Below are positions 1 through 12,033 of a stretch of 64,000 nt of DNA, in pieces (position 1 is the first letter of the stretch; the number at the start of each line of letters is the position of its first letter). The stretch covers positions 317 to 64,316 of the forward strand of contig CAYGVJ010000007.1 in assembly GCA_964353255.1 (NCBI GenBank). Direction: 5' to 3'. Position numbers and translations under genes: made by a program. Source of the stretch: an uncultured Solibacteraceae bacterium. GTDB taxonomy: Bacteria; Acidobacteriota; Terriglobia; Bryobacterales; Bryobacteraceae. The notes beneath the pieces are model-generated. The model was not told the DNA's origin and searched no databases. It saw only the letters and a list, made by a program, of their open reading frames with translations.

Positions 1-8
1 CACTGCTC

Positions 9-1391
9 TTGGCGACCCGCATTCGACTCGCTCGCCTTTCCAGGCGCCGGATCGGGAAGTTCGCGGAGCTTTGTCATGAGCTGAATTGGCGGGAATCATA
101 CCCTGAGCTAGTCGCTCTTCTCGCACGGAACCTCAAGGAGTTCTTTCGCATTTACCACGCCGACTACGGGCTCCCGGCTCTTCGGCGGCGCCTCACGTCG
201 CGAGTGCTGCCAACCTTTGAGGACACTATCCTGAGGCTGGACGCTCTTCGAAAGACGGGAGGACAGCCACCGCTCACTTTTGCGGACCGGATTCCAGACC
301 AAATCGCCAGGCACGTGATCCGATTTCTCCCAGCATATTCGTGCGAGCAACGCATCGCGGCCCAAGTGGTCGAGAGCGTTCTGATGGCGCCGCGCTTCAT
401 CGAGGCGCTTTCAAACACGCGACCGTACCTCGGGATCGACATCATCCGCGGACTGGCCGGCAAGTTCGATCAGCAGGAGTTTCTTTCGGACTATATGGCA
501 GCGCTGATGGCCAACCCGGCGAGCGTGCTCTATCGGGAGATCGAGAAGAGCCAAAACCTTGCGTACGCCTTCCCCGAAACAAACCGCATCCTTCACAACC
601 TGGTGAAGGACGCCAAGGTTGCGCGGGATCTGGAGATTTGGAGACCAGTCGGCGAGTTCGCTCTGCGCGAACTGGACCGTCTGGCCGCCGATCCAGCCGG
701 CGACCGATACAACCACGCTTCCGGCGAGTTCGAGGAGCGGGAGGCGTGGCGCTCTCCGGTATGCGCGGCAATCCGTTTCTTCGACATCATGGTCCGCGCC
801 GGGCTTTCTCAAGGCATCGAGTGGCACATGGGGCTCTGCTATTTCCCGCCGATAGTGGATGGCATGGTCAGGAACTACAAGCCCTCCGGCCGACTCGTTG
901 ATCTCGACCAGACGTTCCCGACGCCTTACAACCACCTGATGTATGAGGCCGTTTCTACCATCCGAGAGTGGGTCGAAGCGGCCGATGAGGTTCCGGAAGG
1001 CCAGGGCAACGTGACCCTCCACTCCGTCCACGCCGACGCTGAGAACGGCAATATTCCGAAAACCGCTATCCTGGCGCTTGGCGAGTGTGCGGGCCACGTT
1101 CTGCTTTCCGACAAGCTTCGGGACAAGTTCAAGGACACGGTGATGGACGGCACGTTCGGGCTCTACTTCAGACTGCGGCAATCAGCGAAGTTGAGCCAGT
1201 ATGCTGAGGTGCTTGGTTCTTCGCTGCGACATGGCGGGTTGGCCTCTTGGACTGCCGATCCGATGTACTTGGCGAACCTCCACGAGTCGTTTGGCCGCTT
1301 GCAGCACGAATACCGCATCAAACATGACCCGGAACATGTTTCGGATCTCGCCCGCGCTATCGGGGTCCGCACGGAAGGGGCCGCACGTTGA
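9..1391 (+). CDS. Hypothetical protein (>=460 aa), first gene of a three-gene unit with darT-darG; may be 5'-truncated by the window edge
   Basis: ORF is open to the window edge. Its TGA stop (1389-1391) overlaps the TTG at 1388 and lies 12 nt before ATG 1403 of darT. Helix-rich sequence with no motif I can assign. Third codon positions are visibly less G/C-rich than in nearby housekeeping genes. Confidence 0.6.
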   Translation: MATRIRLARLSRRRIGKFAELCHELNWRESYPELVALLARNLKEFFRIYHADYGLPALRRRLTSRVLPTFEDTILRLDALRKTGGQPPLTFADRIPDQIARHVIRFLPAYSCEQRIAAQVVESVLMAPRFIEALSNTRPYLGIDIIRGLAGKFDQQEFLSDYMAALMANPASVLYREIEKSQNLAYAFPETNRILHNLVKDAKVARDLEIWRPVGEFALRELDRLAADPAGDRYNHASGEFEEREAWRSPVCAAIRFFDIMVRAGLSQGIEWHMGLCYFPPIVDGMVRNYKPSGRLVDLDQTFPTPYNHLMYEAVSTIREWVEAADEVPEGQGNVTLHSVHADAENGNIPKTAILALGECAGHVLLSDKLRDKFKDTVMDGTFGLYFRLRQSAKLSQYAEVLGSSLRHGGLASWTADPMYLANLHESFGRLQHEYRIKHDPEHVSDLARAIGVRTEGAAR

Positions 1392-2059
1392 GCTCTGCGT
1401 CAATGACGTCAGTGGGGGTGCCTCCGGGCCCAATCACGATCTACCGGCTTGTGCATATTGAAAATCTGCCGACGCTGCTCGCCCGCGGAGCGCTCCATGC
1501 GCCGAACTGGACGCCCAACGATGGCTTCCCCTACCGCACCATCCACAACCTGAGCGTTCAGGTGAGTCGCCACAGCAGACCGATCCCGTGTGGTCCTCGC
1601 GGCACCTGCCACGAGTACGTCCCGTTTTACTTCGGTCCTCTGTCCGTCATGTTGCTGAATCTTAAGACAGGACGGGTGGAGGGGTACAACGAGGGGCAGG
1701 CGCCGCTCATCTACCTGACCACAACAGTGCAGCGCGTCATCGACGCTGGCCGCCAGTTCGTGTTCTCGGACGGGCACGGCCTGGCGACGTTCACCAGTTG
1801 GTACGACGACCTGGCGCAACTCGGACAACTGGATTGGAACCTCGTCGGCGCCCGCTACTGGGCAGACCAACCGGATGACAATGACCGGCAGCGCCGCAAG
1901 CAGGCCGAGTTCCTGGTCTGGAAGTCGCTGGACTGGTCGTTGATCGAGAGAATTGCCGTTTTGAACCACCAGGTGAAAGCGAACGTTGAGGCCGTGTTGG
2001 ACCAGCATCCCGATCGGTTTCACCCCAGAGTGGAAATAAGGTCAGAATGGTACTACTGA
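1388..2059 (+). CDS. darT: DarT ssDNA ADP-ribosyltransferase toxin (DUF4433 family)
   Basis: Motifs IYRLVHIENLPTLL, HEYVPFYFGP, FVFSDGHG and KQAEFLVW (catalytic Glu context). Followed directly by a macrodomain gene. The true start may be ATG 1403. Confidence 0.85.
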   Translation: MSSASMTSVGVPPGPITIYRLVHIENLPTLLARGALHAPNWTPNDGFPYRTIHNLSVQVSRHSRPIPCGPRGTCHEYVPFYFGPLSVMLLNLKTGRVEGYNEGQAPLIYLTTTVQRVIDAGRQFVFSDGHGLATFTSWYDDLAQLGQLDWNLVGARYWADQPDDNDRQRRKQAEFLVWKSLDWSLIERIAVLNHQVKANVEAVLDQHPDRFHPRVEIRSEWYY

Positions 2060-2072
2060 AGAGAGAGCGCCG

Positions 2073-3125
2073 ATGATTGAAATCGCCAAGGGCAACATAT
2101 TGGAAGCCGACGTCGAGGCACTGGTGAACACCGTGAACTGCGTCGGCTTGATGGGCAAAGGCATCGCGCTTCAGTTCAAGCAGGCATTTCCGGCCAATTT
2201 CAAAGCCTACGAGGCCGCGTGCCGTGCTGGCGAGGTTGTGCCGGGACGGATGTTCATTTTCGACAATGGCAGCCTCATCAACCCGCGGTACGTCATCAAT
2301 TTCCCCACCAAGCGCCACTGGCGCGGGAAGTCGCGCATGGCGGATATTCGGTCCGGGCTGAAAGCGCTCGTCGCCGATGTTCGTAGGCTGGCTGTCCACT
2401 CGGTCGCCGTACCGCCCCTCGGATGCGGGCTTGGGGGATTGGACTGGCGCAAGGTGCGGCCTATCATCGAGCAGGCATTCTCTGAGCTGCCGGACGTTCA
2501 CGTGTTACTGTTCGAGCCCGCAGGGCCGCCGGATGCGAAGGCCATGCCCGTGCGGACCGCGCGGCCTCACATGACTGCGGCGCGTGCACTGTTCATCAAG
2601 TTGATGGACGCCTACGCGGCTCTGGAGTACAGCCGCACCCTGCTGGAGGTGCACAAGCTTGCCTACTTCCTGCAAGAGGCGGGAGAACCACTGCGGCTCA
2701 AGTATGAGGCAGGCCACTACGGCCCTTACGCAGCCAATCTCAATAAGGTGCTGGAGATGATGGAAGGTCACTTCGTCCGCGGCTACGGAGACAGCCAGAA
2801 GCCGAATGCGGAGATCGAGTTGCTGCCCGGCGCCGTTGAGGAGGCAACCGCTTTCCTCGCCGGCAAGTCCGAATCCTTGGGGCGTCTCGGACGCGTTGCG
2901 CGATTGATTGAAGGCTTCGAGACGCCTTACGGCCTGGAACTCCTGGCATCCGTCCATTGGGTGAGTCATCGTGGAGGACCCGGGAGTCACGAGCCCGCCG
3001 CCAATGCGGAGGAAGCCGTTGGCCAGATTCATACATGGAGTCCCCGCAAGCAGCAGGTGTTCAGGCCGGCGCACATCCGCACAGCGTGGAATCGGCTTGA
3101 AGACCAAGGATGGATAGGGGGATAG
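2073..3125 (+). CDS. darG: DarG antitoxin: N-terminal macrodomain plus C-terminal DarT-neutralising extension
   Basis: Macrodomain motifs [29 protein letters not shown] and [10 protein letters not shown], then a ~200-aa C-terminal domain. Sits 14 nt after darT. Confidence 0.85.
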
Positions 3126-3384
3126 CGAATCGCGGGCAGCTCGCTCAGGAAGCGACTGGGGAGCCCGCCACATAACAGGGCAGGTTTCGTCGGCCTTCCG
3201 AGAGGCCAACGCGCGGCAGTACGTGCCGGCCGCCAACCAGGCCTGGGAGGCCCGCTTCCCCGGCATCTTCCATATCAAGGACGGCACGATGCGCACGGGG
3301 GAGATTACCGGCCCCGGCCTCGGCGCTGTATGACGTGGCCCGAAACCTTGAACGGAAACTTGGGTTAAGTGAGTTGAGGAGATT

Positions 3385-4038
3385 GTGAGTATGACGCTTC
3401 GCGCAGTAATCCCGTTCGTCGTCTTCGGCGTCGCCCTGGGCCAGGCCCCGCTGGGGCCGCCGAATAGACCAAGCGTTCCCGGGGGCCCTGGGATGCCGAT
3501 GCTGGTGCCGGACATTGGCGCACTGAAGGCTTACTTGAACCTGACCGATGCGCAGGTTCAGCAGATGCGGCAGGCCGGTGAGCAGGCGCGCAAACAGGCC
3601 GCCGAAAAGGTGAGAACCATTCAGCCGCAGGTCCGGGACAAGCGATTGGCCCTGCGAGACTTGCTCGCCAAAGGCTCCAACGACCCTGCCGCCGTGGGCA
3701 AGCTGGTCCTCGAGATTCAAGCGTTGCAGAAGCAGGTGCGGGAGGGGCGAGAGGCGGTGCGAAACAGCCAGCTTAACGTCTTGACCGCGGAGCAGAAAGC
3801 CAAGTTCAAAGCCATCGAAGACGCTGCGGCGCTGCCGGCGGCGACGCGCGCTGCCATCAGGCTCGGGCTGGTGCCGCGCCCACAAGGCGAACCGGGACTC
3901 GGGATGATGAGGCGGGGCAGAGGCCTGCGCAGACAGGGTGGCACAATGGTGGAACCGGGCCCGGGTATGATGGGACCCGGCGCGGGGCCCCGCCGACGGG
4001 GTCAGGGACTCGGGCCCATGGACGGCGTCGCTCCGTGA
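3385..4038 (+). CDS. Periplasmic Spy/CpxP-family (LTXXQ-motif) protein with a Gly/Pro/Met-rich tail
   Basis: Signal-peptide-like N-terminus, two LTXXQ motifs (LTDAQ, LTAEQ), coiled-coil-like core, GAGGAG Shine-Dalgarno upstream. ATG 3391 is an alternative start. Confidence 0.6.
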   Translation: MSMTLRAVIPFVVFGVALGQAPLGPPNRPSVPGGPGMPMLVPDIGALKAYLNLTDAQVQQMRQAGEQARKQAAEKVRTIQPQVRDKRLALRDLLAKGSNDPAAVGKLVLEIQALQKQVREGREAVRNSQLNVLTAEQKAKFKAIEDAAALPAATRAAIRLGLVPRPQGEPGLGMMRRGRGLRRQGGTMVEPGPGMMGPGAGPRRRGQGLGPMDGVAP

Positions 4039-4078
4039 CCGCTCCATGCGCAGCGCGGCCTCCAGCGCTGCCCGGCTA

Positions 4079-4657
4079 CTATCTGGCGACGCCCACCACC
4101 AGCAGTGCCACCGGGGTCTCGCCCAGCGTCAGGTGCATGGTCCACTCGCCATCGCGGCTCATGCGCAGCCGGGGTGAAGGGCCGGCTGCGCCGGAGACGA
4201 GGCGCAACAGGGCCGGCGCGTCGGTGCGCGAGACCTTGCGGCTCAGGGCTTCGAGGGGCTCGGTTTCCGGAGGGCTTAAGCGCTGGTCGTCCTCTGCTTT
4301 GATCATGAGCAGGGAGTCGCCCGGCAGCGCCCGCAACGTGTAGAGCCCCGGTCCGAAGCCCCGGCCGTAACGATCAGCGCCCGGCGAGGCGAACCGGATG
4401 GCGCCGGCCAAAGCGCCTTCGGGGAGACCTCCAGCCTTCAGCGCCTCTTCCGCGGACGCGCCCTCGGAAACCGGGGCCTCACGCAGCCAGACTTCGCAGA
4501 AGGTGAACCGGTTGGGGTCCACGATCTTCACGCCGCGGCTCTGTAGCGCCTCGCGGATCTCCGCCGCCAGTTGCGCCGGCGGCGCGCCCGTGGGCAGCGC
4601 ACGATAGTCTTGCGCCGCCAGAGCAGCGGTTGCCAGCAGGAACAGCCATGCTCGCAT
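4079..4657 (-). CDS. Secreted hypothetical protein
   Basis: 192-aa ORF with N-terminal signal peptide (MRAWLFLLATAALAAQ); host-like codon bias; no recognisable domain. Confidence 0.5.
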   Translation of the reverse strand: MRAWLFLLATAALAAQDYRALPTGAPPAQLAAEIREALQSRGVKIVDPNRFTFCEVWLREAPVSEGASAEEALKAGGLPEGALAGAIRFASPGADRYGRGFGPGLYTLRALPGDSLLMIKAEDDQRLSPPETEPLEALSRKVSRTDAPALLRLVSGAAGPSPRLRMSRDGEWTMHLTLGETPVALLVVGVAR

Positions 4658-4867
4658 TAGAGTTCTCCCTCACAGGTTGGACGCACGCCAGGCAGCGTCC
4701 GACTCAGGACCGGCGCAAGAGTTCGGTCACGCCTGCCGGAAGGATGGGTGAAAGTCGCCCCGGCCGAGTGGCCCTTTTATTTTCAGCCAGTTGCAAGCCT
4801 TCCCGGCCGTTCCGGCAGAGCCTTCCGGCTGGTTTCCTGCCGGGCGGCTGCTAAGATCTGAAGCGGC

Positions 4868-5092
4868 ATGGACAAGCGAGAACTGGCTGAACGTCTGGCC
4901 CGCAAGGCGCGGCTGCCCAAGCCGGTCGCCGCCGATCAGCTTGACCGGGTGGTCCACGGCATCCTGCGGAGCTTGCGCAAGGGGCAACGGGTTACGCTTC
5001 CGGGCTTGGGCACTTTCGTCCCCGGGAAGAAGCCTACGTTTCGATTCGAGCCGGCCAAGTCCGGCAAGAGTGCCCGCAGCGGGCGAAAATGA
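4868..5092 (+). CDS. Small HU/IHF-fold-like DNA-binding protein (short-arm, HU-CCDC81-like)
   Basis: The pattern ELAERLA...VAADQLDRVVHGILRSLRKGQRVTLPGLGTF matches the helix-helix-strand core of HU but lacks the long beta-arm. Basic tail. Its stop overlaps the next start (ATGA at 5089). Confidence 0.6.
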   Translation: MDKRELAERLARKARLPKPVAADQLDRVVHGILRSLRKGQRVTLPGLGTFVPGKKPTFRFEPAKSGKSARSGRK

Positions 5093-5661
5093 GCGGCGCG
5101 GCAGCCACTTCCAGTGAGCAGGTAGCGGGCATTGTCAAGCGCTGCCTGGAGCGCGGCCGGAGCGTCGAGATCGACGGGCTGGGAGTGTTCCGTCCGGCTG
5201 CCGGGGGCCGGTTCAAGTTCGTCGCCGAGGCTCGCTCGAGCGTGTTCCTGGCTTACGTGCAAGAGGACGCCTCCGCCGCTGAGCGGCTGTACCGGGATTT
5301 CCAAGCCCGGGGCTTTGACCCGTGGCTGGACCGCCAGAAGCTGCTACCCGGCCAGAACTGGCCGCGAGCCATCGAGCAGGCCATCGAGTTCTGTGACTAC
5401 TTCGTGGCGTGCTTCTCGAAGTGCGCCGCCGGCAAGCGCGGCTGGTTCCAGTCCGAGTTGCGCTACGCGCTGGATTGCGCCCGGCGCGTGCCGCTGGGGG
5501 AGACTTACCTGATCCCGGTGCGGTTGGAAGAGTGCCGCGTGCCGGCGCGGATCAGCCAGCAGTGGCAGTACGTGGACCTGTTTCCGGATTGGGACCGGGG
5601 GTTCAGGCGGATCCTGGCGGCGATTCGGCGCCGGGTGAGGCGCTCACCCCGAGCGAGCTAG
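5089..5661 (+). CDS. Fusion protein: N-terminal HU-like segment plus C-terminal TIR domain
   Basis: N-terminus VAGIVKRCLERGRSVEIDGLGVFRP..GRFKFV repeats the HU-like core. Residues ~52-150 match bacterial TIR_2: VFLAYVQEDAS, GFDPWLDRQKLLPGQNW, DYFVACFS, WFQSELRYAL (conserved Glu). Confidence 0.75.
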   Translation: MSGAAATSSEQVAGIVKRCLERGRSVEIDGLGVFRPAAGGRFKFVAEARSSVFLAYVQEDASAAERLYRDFQARGFDPWLDRQKLLPGQNWPRAIEQAIEFCDYFVACFSKCAAGKRGWFQSELRYALDCARRVPLGETYLIPVRLEECRVPARISQQWQYVDLFPDWDRGFRRILAAIRRRVRRSPRAS

Positions 5662-6039
5662 CTTGCGCTTGATCTCCGCGGCGCGCGGGTGGTCTGGCGC
5701 CAGCTCCAGGAACTTGCGGTAGGCTTCCCGCGCGGCCTTCGGGTCCTTCAGTTTGTTCTGGGTCTCCCCCAGCCGCAAGTAGGCCTCGGCGTAGCCGGGG
5801 TTCCATTTGGTGGCTTCGCGGAAGCGACCTGCCGCGGCCTTGTACTTGCCCTTGCGGAAATAGAAGTTGCCCACCTTGAGCTCCTGCTCCGCCTGAAGGG
5901 GATTGAACGAGTACTCCTTGACGGTGAGAGCCTCGTCCTCTTCGGGAGGCTCCTGGACGGGAGGCGCCTTCTGCCGCTGGGCGCAGAGCGCGCCACCGAG
6001 CAGCATCAGGAGCAGGAGGCCACCACCGGCGCGTGCCAC
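5644..6039 (-). CDS. Exported TPR-repeat protein
   Basis: Signal peptide followed by TPR-like repeats (GNFYFRKGKYKAAAGRFREA, PGYAEAYLRLGE, AREAYRKFLELAP). Confidence 0.7.
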   Translation of the reverse strand: MARAGGGLLLLMLLGGALCAQRQKAPPVQEPPEEDEALTVKEYSFNPLQAEQELKVGNFYFRKGKYKAAAGRFREATKWNPGYAEAYLRLGETQNKLKDPKAAREAYRKFLELAPDHPRAAEIKRKLARSG

Positions 6040-6061
6040 AATTCTAGTATAAGGTTCGTCG

Positions 6062-7873
6062 ATGGATCTCCGCGAGAAGGCCGCTCAGTTGCCCGCCCAG
6101 CCCGGCGTCTACCTCTACAAGGACGCCGGCGGAGCGGTCCTCTACGTCGGCAAGGCCAAGGACCTGCGCAGCCGCGTGCGGAGCTACTTCTCCGAAGGAG
6201 GCCGGGCCGACGCGAAGACCGGCACGCTGATCGCCGAAGCCCGCGACGTGGAGTACATCCTGGTGGACAACGAGCGGGAGGCGCTGGCTCTGGAGAACAA
6301 CCTGATCAAGCACTGGCAGCCGCGCTTCAACGTTTTGCTGCGGGATGACAAGACCTACCCTTACATCAAGCTGACCAACGAGCGCTACCCGCGCGTCTAT
6401 GTGACGCGGCGGCTCATCAAGGATGGCTCGACTTACTACGGCCCGTATTTCCCCGGGAACCTGGCGCACCGGCTGGTGCACTTGATTCACCGGTATTTCG
6501 GGTTGCCCTCCTGCAAGGTGGATCTGACGCGGCGCCACGCGCAGCCCTGCCTCCAGCACCACATTCACCGCTGCCACGGCCCCTGCGTGGAGGGGCTGAC
6601 CACGGAGGAAGCCTACGCCCGGGCGGCCCGCCTAGTCCGGCTGTTTCTGGAGGGACGCCACGGGGACCTGCTCGCGGAGCTGCGCGCGGAGATGCAACGC
6701 GCCTCCGACGAGACGCGCTTCGAGCAGGCGGCAGTGCTGCGGGACGTGATCTCGACCATCGAGGAGACCGAGGATAAGCAGAGGATGGCCGCGGCCGCCG
6801 GCGAGGACATAGACATCTTCGGCTGCTACGCCGAACCGCCGCTGGTAGCGGCCAACGTCTTTCACCTGCGCAACGGGCGCATTGTGGACCGCCGCGAGTT
6901 CTTCTGGGAGGACCGGACGGAGTTCGAATCGGCGGAGTTTGTCTCGGGTTTTTTGAAGCAGTTCTATCTCGACCAGCAGTACGTCCCGGCGCGGATTCAC
7001 GTACCGGTGGAGTTCGAGGACCGGGAGGCTTTGGAGGAGGCGCTGTCGGAGCGGCGCGGGCGCAAGGTCGAGATCCACACGCCGCAGCGGGGACCGAAGA
7101 AGGCGCTGCTCGATCTGGCTGAGACCAACGCCCGGCACAGCTTCGAGCAGCGTTTCCGGGTGCTGAAACCCTCGGCGAAGGCGATTCAAGAGGCGCTTCA
7201 GGACATGCTGGGCTTGGCAGAGCCGCCCCGGCGCATCGAGTGCTTCGACATTTCCCATATTCACGGGACGGACACCGTAGCCAGCCTGGTGGTTTGGGAA
7301 AACGGGCGGATGAAGAAGTCGGATTACCGCAAGTTTGTCATCCGCACCGTGGAAGGCAGCGACGACTTCGCGGCCATGCGGGAGGTGATCACGCGGCGGT
7401 ATCGGCGGCTGCAAGAAGAGAAGCGGCCCCTGCCGTCGCTGGTGCTGGTGGACGGCGGCGTGGGTCAACTGCACGCGGCCGCCGAAGCGCTGGAGGGGCT
7501 GGGAATCACGGATCAGGCGCTAGCCGCCATCGCCAAGCGCGAGGAGTGGATTTACGTCTACGGGCAGGAAGACGAGCCGGTGGTGCTGGACCGCTTCTCG
7601 CCGGTGCTCCATCTGGTCCAGAGCGTGCGCGATGAGGCGCACCGGTTCGCCGTGACCTTCCACCGCACGCGGCGCGCGGCGGCGCGGCTGCGCTCGGAGC
7701 TGGAGCAAATCCCTGGGGTGGGAGAGAAGACCGTGCAGAAGCTGCTCAAGCACTTCGGCAGCCTCGAGGGCGTGCGCCAGGCCGCGGAGGAAGAGCTGGC
7801 GGCGGTGGTGGGGAAGGCAGCGGCAAGGCGGGTGCGGGGGTGGCGCGCCGCTCCCGAGGGCGACGTACAATAA
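6062..7873 (+). CDS. uvrC: Excinuclease ABC subunit C
   Basis: GIY-YIG N-terminus (PGVYLYKDAGGAVLYVGKAKDLRSRVRSYF), UVR domain, RNase H-like endonuclease region and C-terminal (HhH)2 (IPGVGEKTVQKLLKHFGSLEGV). The last 10 codons are unrelated to the displaced tail copies. Confidence 0.95.
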   Translation: MDLREKAAQLPAQPGVYLYKDAGGAVLYVGKAKDLRSRVRSYFSEGGRADAKTGTLIAEARDVEYILVDNEREALALENNLIKHWQPRFNVLLRDDKTYPYIKLTNERYPRVYVTRRLIKDGSTYYGPYFPGNLAHRLVHLIHRYFGLPSCKVDLTRRHAQPCLQHHIHRCHGPCVEGLTTEEAYARAARLVRLFLEGRHGDLLAELRAEMQRASDETRFEQAAVLRDVISTIEETEDKQRMAAAAGEDIDIFGCYAEPPLVAANVFHLRNGRIVDRREFFWEDRTEFESAEFVSGFLKQFYLDQQYVPARIHVPVEFEDREALEEALSERRGRKVEIHTPQRGPKKALLDLAETNARHSFEQRFRVLKPSAKAIQEALQDMLGLAEPPRRIECFDISHIHGTDTVASLVVWENGRMKKSDYRKFVIRTVEGSDDFAAMREVITRRYRRLQEEKRPLPSLVLVDGGVGQLHAAAEALEGLGITDQALAAIAKREEWIYVYGQEDEPVVLDRFSPVLHLVQSVRDEAHRFAVTFHRTRRAAARLRSELEQIPGVGEKTVQKLLKHFGSLEGVRQAAEEELAAVVGKAAARRVRGWRAAPEGDVQ

Positions 7874-7877
7874 GGCC

Positions 7878-8117
7878 ATGGGGTTGCCACCGCCGTTCGA
7901 CCGCATCACCATCGACCCGGAGCTCATGAACGGGCAGCCGTGCATCCGCGGCATGCGGCTCACGGTGCGACGCGTGCTTCAGGCGATGGCGCTCTATCCT
8001 GACCGTGCCGAGCTTTTCCGGGAATATCCGGAACTGGAAGAAGAGGACCTGCGGCAGGCCCTGGAGTTTTCGGCCGCCAATCTGGATGACCGCATCGACC
8101 TGCTGAACGTGGCGTGA
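7878..8117 (+). CDS. DUF433-family antitoxin-like protein
   Basis: ITIDPELMNGQPCIRGMRLTVRRVLQ...YPELEEEDLRQALEF matches the DUF433 pattern. Starts 4 nt after the uvrC stop. Confidence 0.8.
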   Translation: MGLPPPFDRITIDPELMNGQPCIRGMRLTVRRVLQAMALYPDRAELFREYPELEEEDLRQALEFSAANLDDRIDLLNVA

Positions 8118-11207: not shown

Positions 11208-12033
11208 TCCACTCACGGGTCGCGTACTTCGTCGGGTAGATCAAGCCGCGGCGGCGTGTGGCTCGCGATGCTTCGTGGCGGGCGCTATGGCGCGAGACTT
11301 GGTCTTGGTGAACGCCTTCGGGCTGCCGCCCGGCCGGGCGACCAGGGACATTGATTTCGGCATTGCGGTCGAGAGCTGGGAACAGTTTCAGACGCTCAGG
11401 GCCAACCTGATTGAGACCGGCCAGTTCGACGCCGCGCCGCGGGATGCCCGCCGACTGTACTGGAAAGACCCGGACGCCGAAGTCGCCACTCCCATTGACC
11501 TCATTCCCTTTGGCGGAGTCACGTCTGAGGACAAGACCATCGCCTGGCCTCCAAACCGGGATTTCGTGATGAACGTGGCCGGATTCGAGGAGGCGTTGGA
11601 GTCCGCAATCGAGCTGCGAATCGAAGACGACCTCGTCGTCTCAGTAGCGTCAATTCCGGGACTCACCGTTCTGAAACTGATCGCTTGGCAGGATCGCCGG
11701 AGTAGGAACAACCAGGACGCGGCAGATCTCATTCGCCTCCTGGAGTACTACGCGGAGGCCGGGAATCTGGATCGCCTCTACGAACAGGAGATGCTTCTGC
11801 TCGAGACTGCTGGTTTCGACCTGGAGCTGGCGGGAGCACAGCTATTGGGGCGCGATGCGGCTCGCATCTGCCAAGCGGCGACACGGCAGCAGGTTTCCGC
11901 TCTTCTCAGTTCGGAACCGCTTGTCGACCAACTGATCGTCCAAATGGACCGAACAGGATTCAGCGAAGACCTGCAAACGGAACGGATCTCCGGCCTCTTG
12001 AGACGGTTCTGTCAGGGTTTCCTCGGCGCTTGA
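11158..12033 (+). CDS. AbiEii/AbiGii-like nucleotidyltransferase toxin
   Basis: NTase signature FVAGAMARDLVL...GRATRDIDFGIAV and a helical C-terminal domain. Overlaps the AbiEi-like gene. The start is uncertain (ATG 11158 or GTG 11188); the longer 11005 frame overlaps AbiEi implausibly. Confidence 0.7.
   Translation: MTNLSNPRFIVPVKPVDPLTGRVLRRVDQAAAACGSRCFVAGAMARDLVLVNAFGLPPGRATRDIDFGIAVESWEQFQTLRANLIETGQFDAAPRDARRLYWKDPDAEVATPIDLIPFGGVTSEDKTIAWPPNRDFVMNVAGFEEALESAIELRIEDDLVVSVASIPGLTVLKLIAWQDRRSRNNQDAADLIRLLEYYAEAGNLDRLYEQEMLLLETAGFDLELAGAQLLGRDAARICQAATRQQVSALLSSEPLVDQLIVQMDRTGFSEDLQTERISGLLRRFCQGFLGA

Follow-up and report, generated by a model that had tools for sequence, protein, structure and literature searches.

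Here, we analysed the left end of a 64,000-nt stretch of DNA (the window) from an uncultured Solibacteraceae bacterium, contig CAYGVJ010000007.1, which opens with three genes in the same orientation: the 3' part of a gene to which no family could be assigned, referred to below as X, and the toxin and antitoxin genes darT and darG. The original prediction had proposed that these genes might form a three-component variant of the DarTG toxin-antitoxin system. The account that we find reasonably probable is a different one, namely a mobile cassette joining two separable modules, in which X is a travelling neighbour and DarTG works as the usual two-gene system. The features concerned are given below; loci related to the window are designated by the letter L and a number.

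1-1391, + strand: gene X, its 3' 1389 nt (residues 85-546); frame 3 is open from position 3
1361-1405, + strand: X/darT junction (sequence; alignment of the window, L001, L037 and L038)
1388-2059, + strand: darT, single-stranded DNA thymidine ADP-ribosyltransferase toxin (PF14487, toxin_DarT, PADLOC DarT)
2073-3125, + strand: darG antitoxin, macrodomain and DarT-binding domain (antitoxin_DarG, PADLOC DarG, 5M3I/5M31/7YK3_B)
3202-3332, + strand: orphan 3' fragment of an enolase-superfamily (MR_MLE_C) gene (tblastn, L038 DNA match, Pfam)

The identity of darT and darG was described as clear from the outset, and the matches obtained in Pfam, NCBIfam and PADLOC fully agree with this, both motifs named earlier (YVPFYF and KQAEFLV) being present in the translation. 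The DarT protein, whose length is 223 aa with TTG 1388 as the start and 218 aa with ATG 1403, matches Pfam PF14487 (DUF4433) at 6e-55 over profile positions 1-201 of 201, the NCBIfam toxin_DarT model with 234 bits (cut-off 150) and the PADLOC DarT model with 209 bits, and it aligns with the Thermus DarT of structure 7OMV at E = 2e-46. The Glu of its KQAEFLV motif stands opposite the Ala of KQAAFLV in 7OMV, which is the E160A crystal construct. Catalytic roles of E160 in Taq DarT and of K80 in DarG, together with the roles of the substrate-binding residues of DarG, have been described (PMC5179494). The darG gene starts 13 nt after the darT stop codon, on the same strand. Its product matches the NCBIfam antitoxin_DarG model with 469 bits over 338 of 338 positions and the PADLOC DarG model with 444 bits; the macrodomain gives a Pfam match of 2.7e-25 and aligns with 5M3I and 5M31 (Mycobacterium tuberculosis and T. 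aquaticus) at about 1e-53, and residues 190-342 align with 7YK3_B, the DarT-binding domain of M. tuberculosis DarG, at 1.7e-22. Equivalents of N22, K29, K80 (in FPTK), H82 and W83 are all kept. Thus, judging from these profile, structure-sequence and key-residue matches, darT-darG is a canonical and apparently intact DarTG2-type module. In the public gene call, the window DarT (P0168, 202 aa) starts at GTG 1451; since homologues are 214-224 aa long and this GTG falls within the part of the gene to which the DarT models of Pfam and NCBIfam align, the call is probably too short.

The upstream open reading frame had been taken to encode 460 aa, which turned out to be the effect of truncation by the window edge. 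Its frame (frame 3, + strand) is open from the first in-frame codon, with ctg ctc at positions 3-8 and no stop before the TTG at position 9, and a 546-aa database protein (P0001) is 100% identical to the window X; the window therefore holds the last 462 residues, ending at the TGA stop at 1389-1391, and the first 84 residues lie off the window. The statement that X has no assignable motif held in all searches. The window protein had no match in Pfam, NCBIfam, PADLOC or the PDB sequences (phmmer), ten diverse members of the family compared with Pfam and PADLOC gave nothing below E = 0.01, and the profile scans found no P-loop, helicase or ATPase domain, nor any other known domain. The protein was also rightly called helix-rich: its AlphaFold2 model is all-alpha, with 28 helices, a pLDDT (predicted local distance difference test) of 84 and a pTM (predicted template modelling score) of 0.78. 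A Foldseek search of this model against PDB and BFVD returned no significant fold match, only generic alpha-solenoids at E >= 0.027 and TM <= 0.32, which at such values were not treated as homology.

An alignment of 14 homologues revealed three hydrophobic N-terminal segments in X, at approximately residues 1-21, 30-57 and 70-97, with a basic stretch directly after the third. Distant members of the family, in E. coli, Klebsiella and Natroniella, also have these segments; only the end of the third helix falls within the window. From this pattern we infer that X would be a membrane-anchored protein with three N-terminal transmembrane helices, whose alpha-helical domain of about 450 aa would, by the positive-inside rule, be cytoplasmic. 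The polar residues R224, E263, D287, N321, Q354, H359, N432 and K437 are invariant, which suggests a defined binding or catalytic site. A HEPN-like reading of the conserved motif QGIEWH was considered and dropped, as the motif lacks the Arg of Rx4-6H and is without profile support.

The X and darT genes overlap: the TTG at 1388-1390 and the X stop codon TGA form a TTGA stop/start overlap at 1388-1391. In this respect the original prediction was correct; the next in-frame darT ATG, at 1403, lies 11 nt after the X stop. Within X, the purine-rich sequence GGAAGGGG at 1373-1380 provides a GGAGG-like motif 7 nt upstream of the TTGA. The heptamer ACGTTGA is invariant in the window, L001, L037 and L038, where it is preceded by GGAAGGGG, GGGAGGAG, GGGAGGGG or CGAAGGGG. 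A scan for promoters and terminators found no such site between X, darT and darG. The operon junction expected of co-transcription and coupling, that is the TTGA overlap together with the GGAGG-like motif, was thus kept in four diverged loci; the three genes are physically linked, as had been claimed, and translational linkage is probable. In a solo darT-darG pair (L093) the darT start aligns with the ATG at 1403 of the window.

The junction also carries a trace of how it may have arisen. The last ten codons of X lie within positions 1361-1405, and the C-terminal tail they specify, GVRTEGAAR in the window, has the form GVRxxGAxR in DarTG-linked X proteins and is lacking in other X proteins. 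The DNA homology between the window and L008-11, where X stands without DarTG, ends at window position 1360, approximately 30 nt before the X stop. Because the homology stops at this point and the tail occurs only in DarTG-linked X proteins, the alignments place a recombination junction about 30 nt before the end of X.

In order to see whether X belongs to DarTG, the association was examined in both directions. A profile search with X over 1.84 billion representatives, clustered at 50% identity, gave 936 clusters at E <= 1e-3 and 538 at E <= 1e-30, most members being about 540 aa long. The loci compared, 23 from genomes and 55 from metagenomes, belonged to Acidobacteriota, Proteobacteria, Bacteroidota, Elusimicrobiota and Natroniella; others were added by looking up exact proteins, and dereplication at 90% identity left 63 groups. 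With the window proteins as tblastn queries, DarT and DarG were found to adjoin X only in the closest clade (L001/L036, L035, L037/L042 and L038), within which X identity is 62-80%. This makes 4 of the 63 groups (L037/L042 counted once), plus the window; about 59 of the 63 have no DarTG within 8 kb. Moreover, the X of L008-11, which has no DarTG, is 71% identical to the window X and 81% identical to that of L037, and nests inside the DarTG-linked clade. Co-occurrence of X with DarT and DarG, which the original prediction had proposed as a check, therefore did not hold outside the closest clade: X homologues are unlinked in all but the nearest relatives, an outcome that the prediction had itself named as speaking against it.

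The search from the side of DarT added four contigs with X (L090, L091, L095 and L096). The X-darT-darG trio is known from at least six distinct contigs, in two genomic contexts. The nearest relatives of DarT show three arrangements: a SNF2 helicase gene, a methyltransferase gene, X, darT and darG (L090, L091, L095 and L096); the same order with a 302-aa protein in the slot of X (L092); and darT-darG alone among unrelated genes (L093/L094). The DarT proteins of the solo pair and of L092 are 78-84% identical to X-linked DarTs, and the DarTG pairs as a whole are 78-88% identical to X-linked pairs and interleaved with them. For instance, the DarT of L001 has 83.7% identity to that of L092 and 80.7% to that of L093, as against 74.9-81.7% to other X-linked DarTs (78.0% to L037), and the DarG of L037 is 87.4% identical to that of L092, 86.9% to that of L093 and 85.1% to that of L001. 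Since these pairwise identities interleave linked and unlinked loci, the X-linked DarTG pairs do not form a lineage of their own. On this comparative evidence, X is dispensable for DarTG.

These data bear directly on the idea of a true tripartite system, in which X would be a membrane-anchored sensor or regulator, responding for instance to phage DNA entry or envelope stress, that controls the release, level or location of DarT. Such a system would account well for a TTGA overlap and a Shine-Dalgarno-like motif inside X that are conserved in four diverged loci, for the recurrence of the trio in at least six contigs and two contexts, and for an insertion in L038 (described below) in which repeats enclose exactly X, darT and darG. 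It also has a precedent in DarHTG, where a helicase is a required third gene (PMC13069673), and it fits with the coupling of other X homologues to AbiU2, AbiTii, nuclease-like and restriction-modification genes. It agrees poorly with the roughly 59 of 63 X groups devoid of DarTG, with the DarTG-less X nested inside the linked clade, and with DarTG pairs at 78-84% DarT identity that stand alone or behind an unrelated protein without being a separate lineage. Furthermore, DarG retains the macrodomain and DarT-binding architecture that is sufficient in characterised systems. We thus consider a tripartite system unlikely. What stands of the proposed three-component variant is that the linked trio recurs in the closest clade, in two contexts; a role of X as a component of DarTG is not supported.

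If X is not specific to DarTG, the question arises what it is. In the wider family, 136 plasmid records carry X relatives, 115 of them from Klebsiella (the Klebsiella homologue is WP_156246517.1), and rhizobial and haloarchaeal plasmids are represented as well; the relative on an Acidisarcina plasmid has 37% identity. Relatives occur also in Klebsiella phage-plasmids and in Stx1a and Stx2c (Shiga toxin) prophages. In the Stx prophages, which belong to E. coli O157-type genomes, the homologue (515-517 aa, WP_000501170.1) is flanked by a DUF551 gene on one side and by the integrase gene on the other, at yjjG; of 5426 complete E. coli genomes, 35 have the homologue, always in a prophage. Other contexts include TrwB/TrwC, integrases, transposases, ArdC and relaxases. 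Homologues in these prophages and phage-plasmids have the following positions:

L097, 4488-6041: X-family homologue
L100, 4095-5642: X-family homologue
L098, 5473-7011: X-family homologue

The plasmid, prophage and phage-plasmid homologues are annotated as 'hypothetical protein' throughout; we found no paper that cites the RefSeq accessions of the E. coli, Klebsiella or Acidisarcina homologues, and a scan of IMG/VR gave no close relatives. Because the family is patchily distributed over plasmids, phage-plasmids, prophages, defence-rich islands and regions resembling conjugative elements, it can be concluded that mobile elements and variable regions carry X as cargo, and that X is neither housekeeping nor DarTG-specific.

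This distribution is hard to reconcile with X being an ordinary chromosomal gene, of housekeeping or envelope function, upstream of an inserted DarTG, which the original prediction had named as an outcome that would speak against it. The absence of any defence-database match agrees with such a gene, and many neighbours of distant X homologues are indeed ordinary metabolic genes. Yet X lies within the repeat-bracketed insertion of L038 together with DarTG and shares the low G+C content of DarTG, and the family is patchy, found on plasmids, in prophages and in regions like integrative and conjugative elements, beside integrases and transposases, and in E. coli always in a prophage. We regard an ordinary chromosomal origin as extremely improbable.

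No constant partner of X emerged. All-against-all clustering of 889 open reading frames from 89 loci found no conserved X partner outside the closest clade, and among 144 X-flanking proteins from 56 loci 146 Pfam families were matched, none of them in more than two proteins; a PADLOC scan of these proteins likewise gave no family in more than two. Most X loci have no tightly spaced same-strand neighbour, and where close same-strand partners do exist they vary by locus: AbiTii, HEPN_AbiU2 (twice, in one Cupriavidus and one Elusimicrobiota genome), a DpnII/MboI-like nuclease, Schlafen/AlbA_2, and a type III Mod-DUF1016-Res array beside Kiwa KwaB. It is conceivable that X is a membrane-anchored module which pairs with interchangeable effectors (DarTG, AbiU2, AbiTii, nuclease-like and type III restriction-modification genes) as an inner-membrane sensor or gate, in which case the window would after all hold a three-component DarTG; we consider this rather unlikely.

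The last of the arrays mentioned belongs to L015 (1-12338), a metagenome-assembled genome of Gallionellaceae, where X is contained in a dense defence island. The gene order there is a helicase fragment, IrrE/M78-HTH, two small open reading frames, Kiwa KwaB, X, an N6_N4 Mod methylase, a DUF1016/YhcG nuclease and Res, and X overlaps the Mod gene by 4 nt.

The ends of the cassette were recognised with the help of L038. This locus contains a direct repeat of 199 nt (98% identity, at 7702-7900 and 11401-11599), and exactly X, darT and darG lie between its two copies, as a discrete 3.5-kb insertion. Of the two copies, only the left one is part of a complete gene, an enolase-superfamily gene of 469 aa (Pfam MR_MLE_C) whose true 3' end it forms; the right one is an orphan fragment. 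In the window, positions 3202-3332 encode the last 43 codons and the stop of such a gene, with 84% amino acid identity to the end of the 469-aa gene of L038 (tblastn), and the DNA matches L038 at 7766-7897 and 11465-11568. By this match, window 3202-3332 is the right-hand repeat copy and marks the right end of the insertion, and the matching orphan fragment after darG indicates that the window and L038 carry the same kind of insertion. The structure in L038 is apparently that expected after a circular intermediate had entered by a Campbell-type single crossover. There is no recombinase gene within the cassette and no tRNA near it. To the right, the flanks differ, with an ABC transporter in L038 and an LTXXQ/Spy-like gene in the window.

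The base composition points in the same direction. The G+C content is 61.2% for positions 1-3332 and 66.6% for 3333-64000, and the block is the lowest among 203 overlapping 3.3-kb windows; GC3 (G+C at third codon positions) is 0.73-0.77 in X, darT and darG versus 0.86-0.87 in a TIR gene and uvrC to the right. The reported drop in G+C was thus real in direction and overstated in size, the contrast being about 5 points and not that between 55-65% and 70% or more. Horizontal acquisition of the block as a unit, proposed on the same ground, fits the repeat-bracketed insertion of L038, the right-hand copy in the window and the lower G+C content.

The second context of the trio is quite different. 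A SNF2 helicase labelled DpdE/DrmD-like by PADLOC (875 bits) is followed by a 1428-aa DrmMI/type-IIG-like methyltransferase and then by the trio; such an array lies upstream of DarTG in L001, L035, L037, L090-92, L095 and L096. It could be argued that X is the third gene of this SNF2 helicase and large N6-methyltransferase system, to which DarTG was appended, as it has been to type I restriction-modification operons. The ends of the helicase, methyltransferase and X genes are tightly packed, overlapping or spaced by 4 nt, in L001, L035, L037, L090, L091, L095 and L096, a homologous methyltransferase lies upstream of X also in L008-11, and PADLOC labels the two as a pair of DpdE/DrmD and DrmMI/type IIG. 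However, in L038 the X-DarTG unit has neither a SNF2 nor a methyltransferase gene within 8 kb, the enolase-family gene being directly upstream of X; no homologue of either exists in the 64-kb window, which does not include the DNA left of X; L092 has the pair with a different protein in the slot of X; and the pair is absent beside nearly all distant X homologues. For these reasons, membership of X in the SNF2-methyltransferase system appears improbable.

The slot between the methyltransferase and DarTG is thus variable: some loci have X there, and L092 has the 302-aa protein. This protein (L092 5106-6014) shares 74% identity over its first 155 residues with a 175-aa protein (L008 7395-7922) encoded just upstream of X in L008-11, and by this likeness it is a second shuffled module. 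That it might be a truncated X was rejected (BLASTP E = 4.4). In L008, the genes upstream of the DarTG-less X (1-7922) encode an N6-methyltransferase (1608 aa) and proteins of 661, 222, 951, 73 and 175 aa; the 661-aa protein has weak LmuB-like matches and the 951-aa protein a weak Dsr1-like match, and this array may be an undescribed multi-gene defence island.

Taken together, the evidence is best explained as follows. A cassette of about 3.5 kb, with two modules in one operon, would have been acquired horizontally, and window 1-3332 would be its right-hand part. The first module, X, normally found alone or beside varied partners, would act on its own, and a guess from its location is that it most likely serves mobile elements in exclusion or abortive infection at the membrane. 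The second is the DarTG2-type pair, for which a mechanism can be carried over from the family: DarT would ADP-ribosylate thymidine in single-stranded DNA and so block replication, the DarG macrodomain would remove the modification and the C-terminal domain of DarG would bind DarT, and upon phage infection the control by DarG would be lost and DarT would modify phage DNA. The pair would also stabilise the surrounding DNA. Recombination approximately 30 nt before the end of X, as placed by the sequences, would have fused a darT leader onto X, and darT would therefore be carried on the X transcript, its TTG start overlapping the X stop behind the Shine-Dalgarno-like motif within X; X and darT would thus be coupled in transcription and translation. 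The unit would then have spread into at least two contexts, behind the SNF2 helicase and methyltransferase and at the 3' end of the enolase-superfamily gene, in the latter case by a Campbell-type single crossover that duplicated the gene end. DarTG would function without X, and the simplest account would be modular shuffling at the ends of defence and mobile-element operons.

Several observations weigh against a cassette of separable modules. The order of the trio and its overlapping junction have been kept through about 20-25% nucleotide divergence, and the trio has moved between two contexts as one piece; a functional tie would give the same pattern. Toxic or effector-like genes stand in tight coupling with several other X homologues, a hint that X may be a partner module. 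The left end of the cassette lies off the window, so its insertion structure is read from L038, and the gene calls in the fetched loci are simple longest-open-reading-frame calls.

The DNA to the right of the cassette shows features of its own. Directly adjacent, at 3385-4038, is a gene for an LTXXQ/heavy-metal-resistance (Spy/CpxP-like) periplasmic protein; a 300-aa open reading frame on the opposite strand (3145-4047) is probably spurious. Two kb to the right of the cassette, just before uvrC, positions 5089-5661 encode a 190-aa TIR-domain protein (Pfam TIR_2, 4.9e-27, with weak matches to the PADLOC Aga_TIR and SAVED_TIR models). Its start is overlapped by a 74-aa open reading frame (4868-5092) that looks HU/IHF-like by eye, and the N-terminus of the TIR protein resembles a second copy of this HU/IHF-like motif. 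An Rfam scan of window 1-6000 gave no match.

As regards the meaning of these results, there is nothing new in the DarTG pair as such. What can be seen here is the welding of a toxin-antitoxin module onto a neighbouring gene with which it then travels: the transcript is shared, the stop of one gene overlaps the start of the next, and a duplicated gene end brackets the cassette. The placing of DarTG inside type I restriction-modification operons is the same process. The case also warns that genes linked in an operon are not, by that alone, components of one system. The main by-product is X itself, a sizeable uncharacterised family (about 940 clusters at 50% identity) for which neither Pfam nor PADLOC nor the structure searches gave a relative. 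Should X be a factor in defence or exclusion, its homologues in E. coli and Klebsiella offer a direct test; if it gates DarT, this would be a second type of tripartite DarTG; and if it is an effector-pairing module, a previously unrecognised defence family would be present in Stx prophages and Klebsiella phage-plasmids.

Prophages and plasmids are known to carry, next to the integrase gene, so-called moron genes for membrane-anchored proteins that act in superinfection exclusion or abortive infection. The X relatives beside the Stx-prophage integrase and in Klebsiella phage-plasmids, with their N-terminal transmembrane helices, resemble these, a likeness by location only; in the databases searched, no exclusion or Abi protein that has been characterised resembles X in sequence or fold. 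The window DarTG itself is readily placed among the DarTG2-type systems of Thermus aquaticus, M. tuberculosis and enteropathogenic E. coli (EPEC). It has the same darT-darG order, a full-length DUF4433 domain with the catalytic Glu, the macrodomain Lys and the DarT-binding domain, and its two proteins show no difference from known DarTG2. Unlike in these systems, darT of the window has no separate upstream region, and its start overlaps the stop of a gene for a 546-aa membrane protein.

Embedded DarTG systems have been described before. DarTG was found inserted into operons of type I restriction-modification, with stabilisation of the locus proposed as one reason (PMC5179494, Jankevicius 2016), and in EPEC the RptR-RMS-DarTG-M48 genes form a seven-gene co-regulated island at a site that was called a hotspot of recombination (PMC12255303). 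In close relatives of the present cassette, DarTG likewise shares the orientation of a larger operon of defence or mobile-element genes and lies within it or comes last in it. These relatives follow a SNF2 helicase and a large N6-methyltransferase instead of type I restriction-modification genes, and in the window and L038 only X is co-resident, no restriction-modification genes being seen. A parallel to the proposed three-component variant is DarHTG (Liu-DS3), a three-gene DarTG that requires a UvrD-like helicase and has DarG3 as its antitoxin (PMC13069673). X differs from its third component in not being a helicase and in having no known domain, and the window antitoxin is a macrodomain DarG, not DarG3. 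What the two have in common is a third gene in the operon of darT, and DarHTG shows that tripartite DarTG systems do exist.

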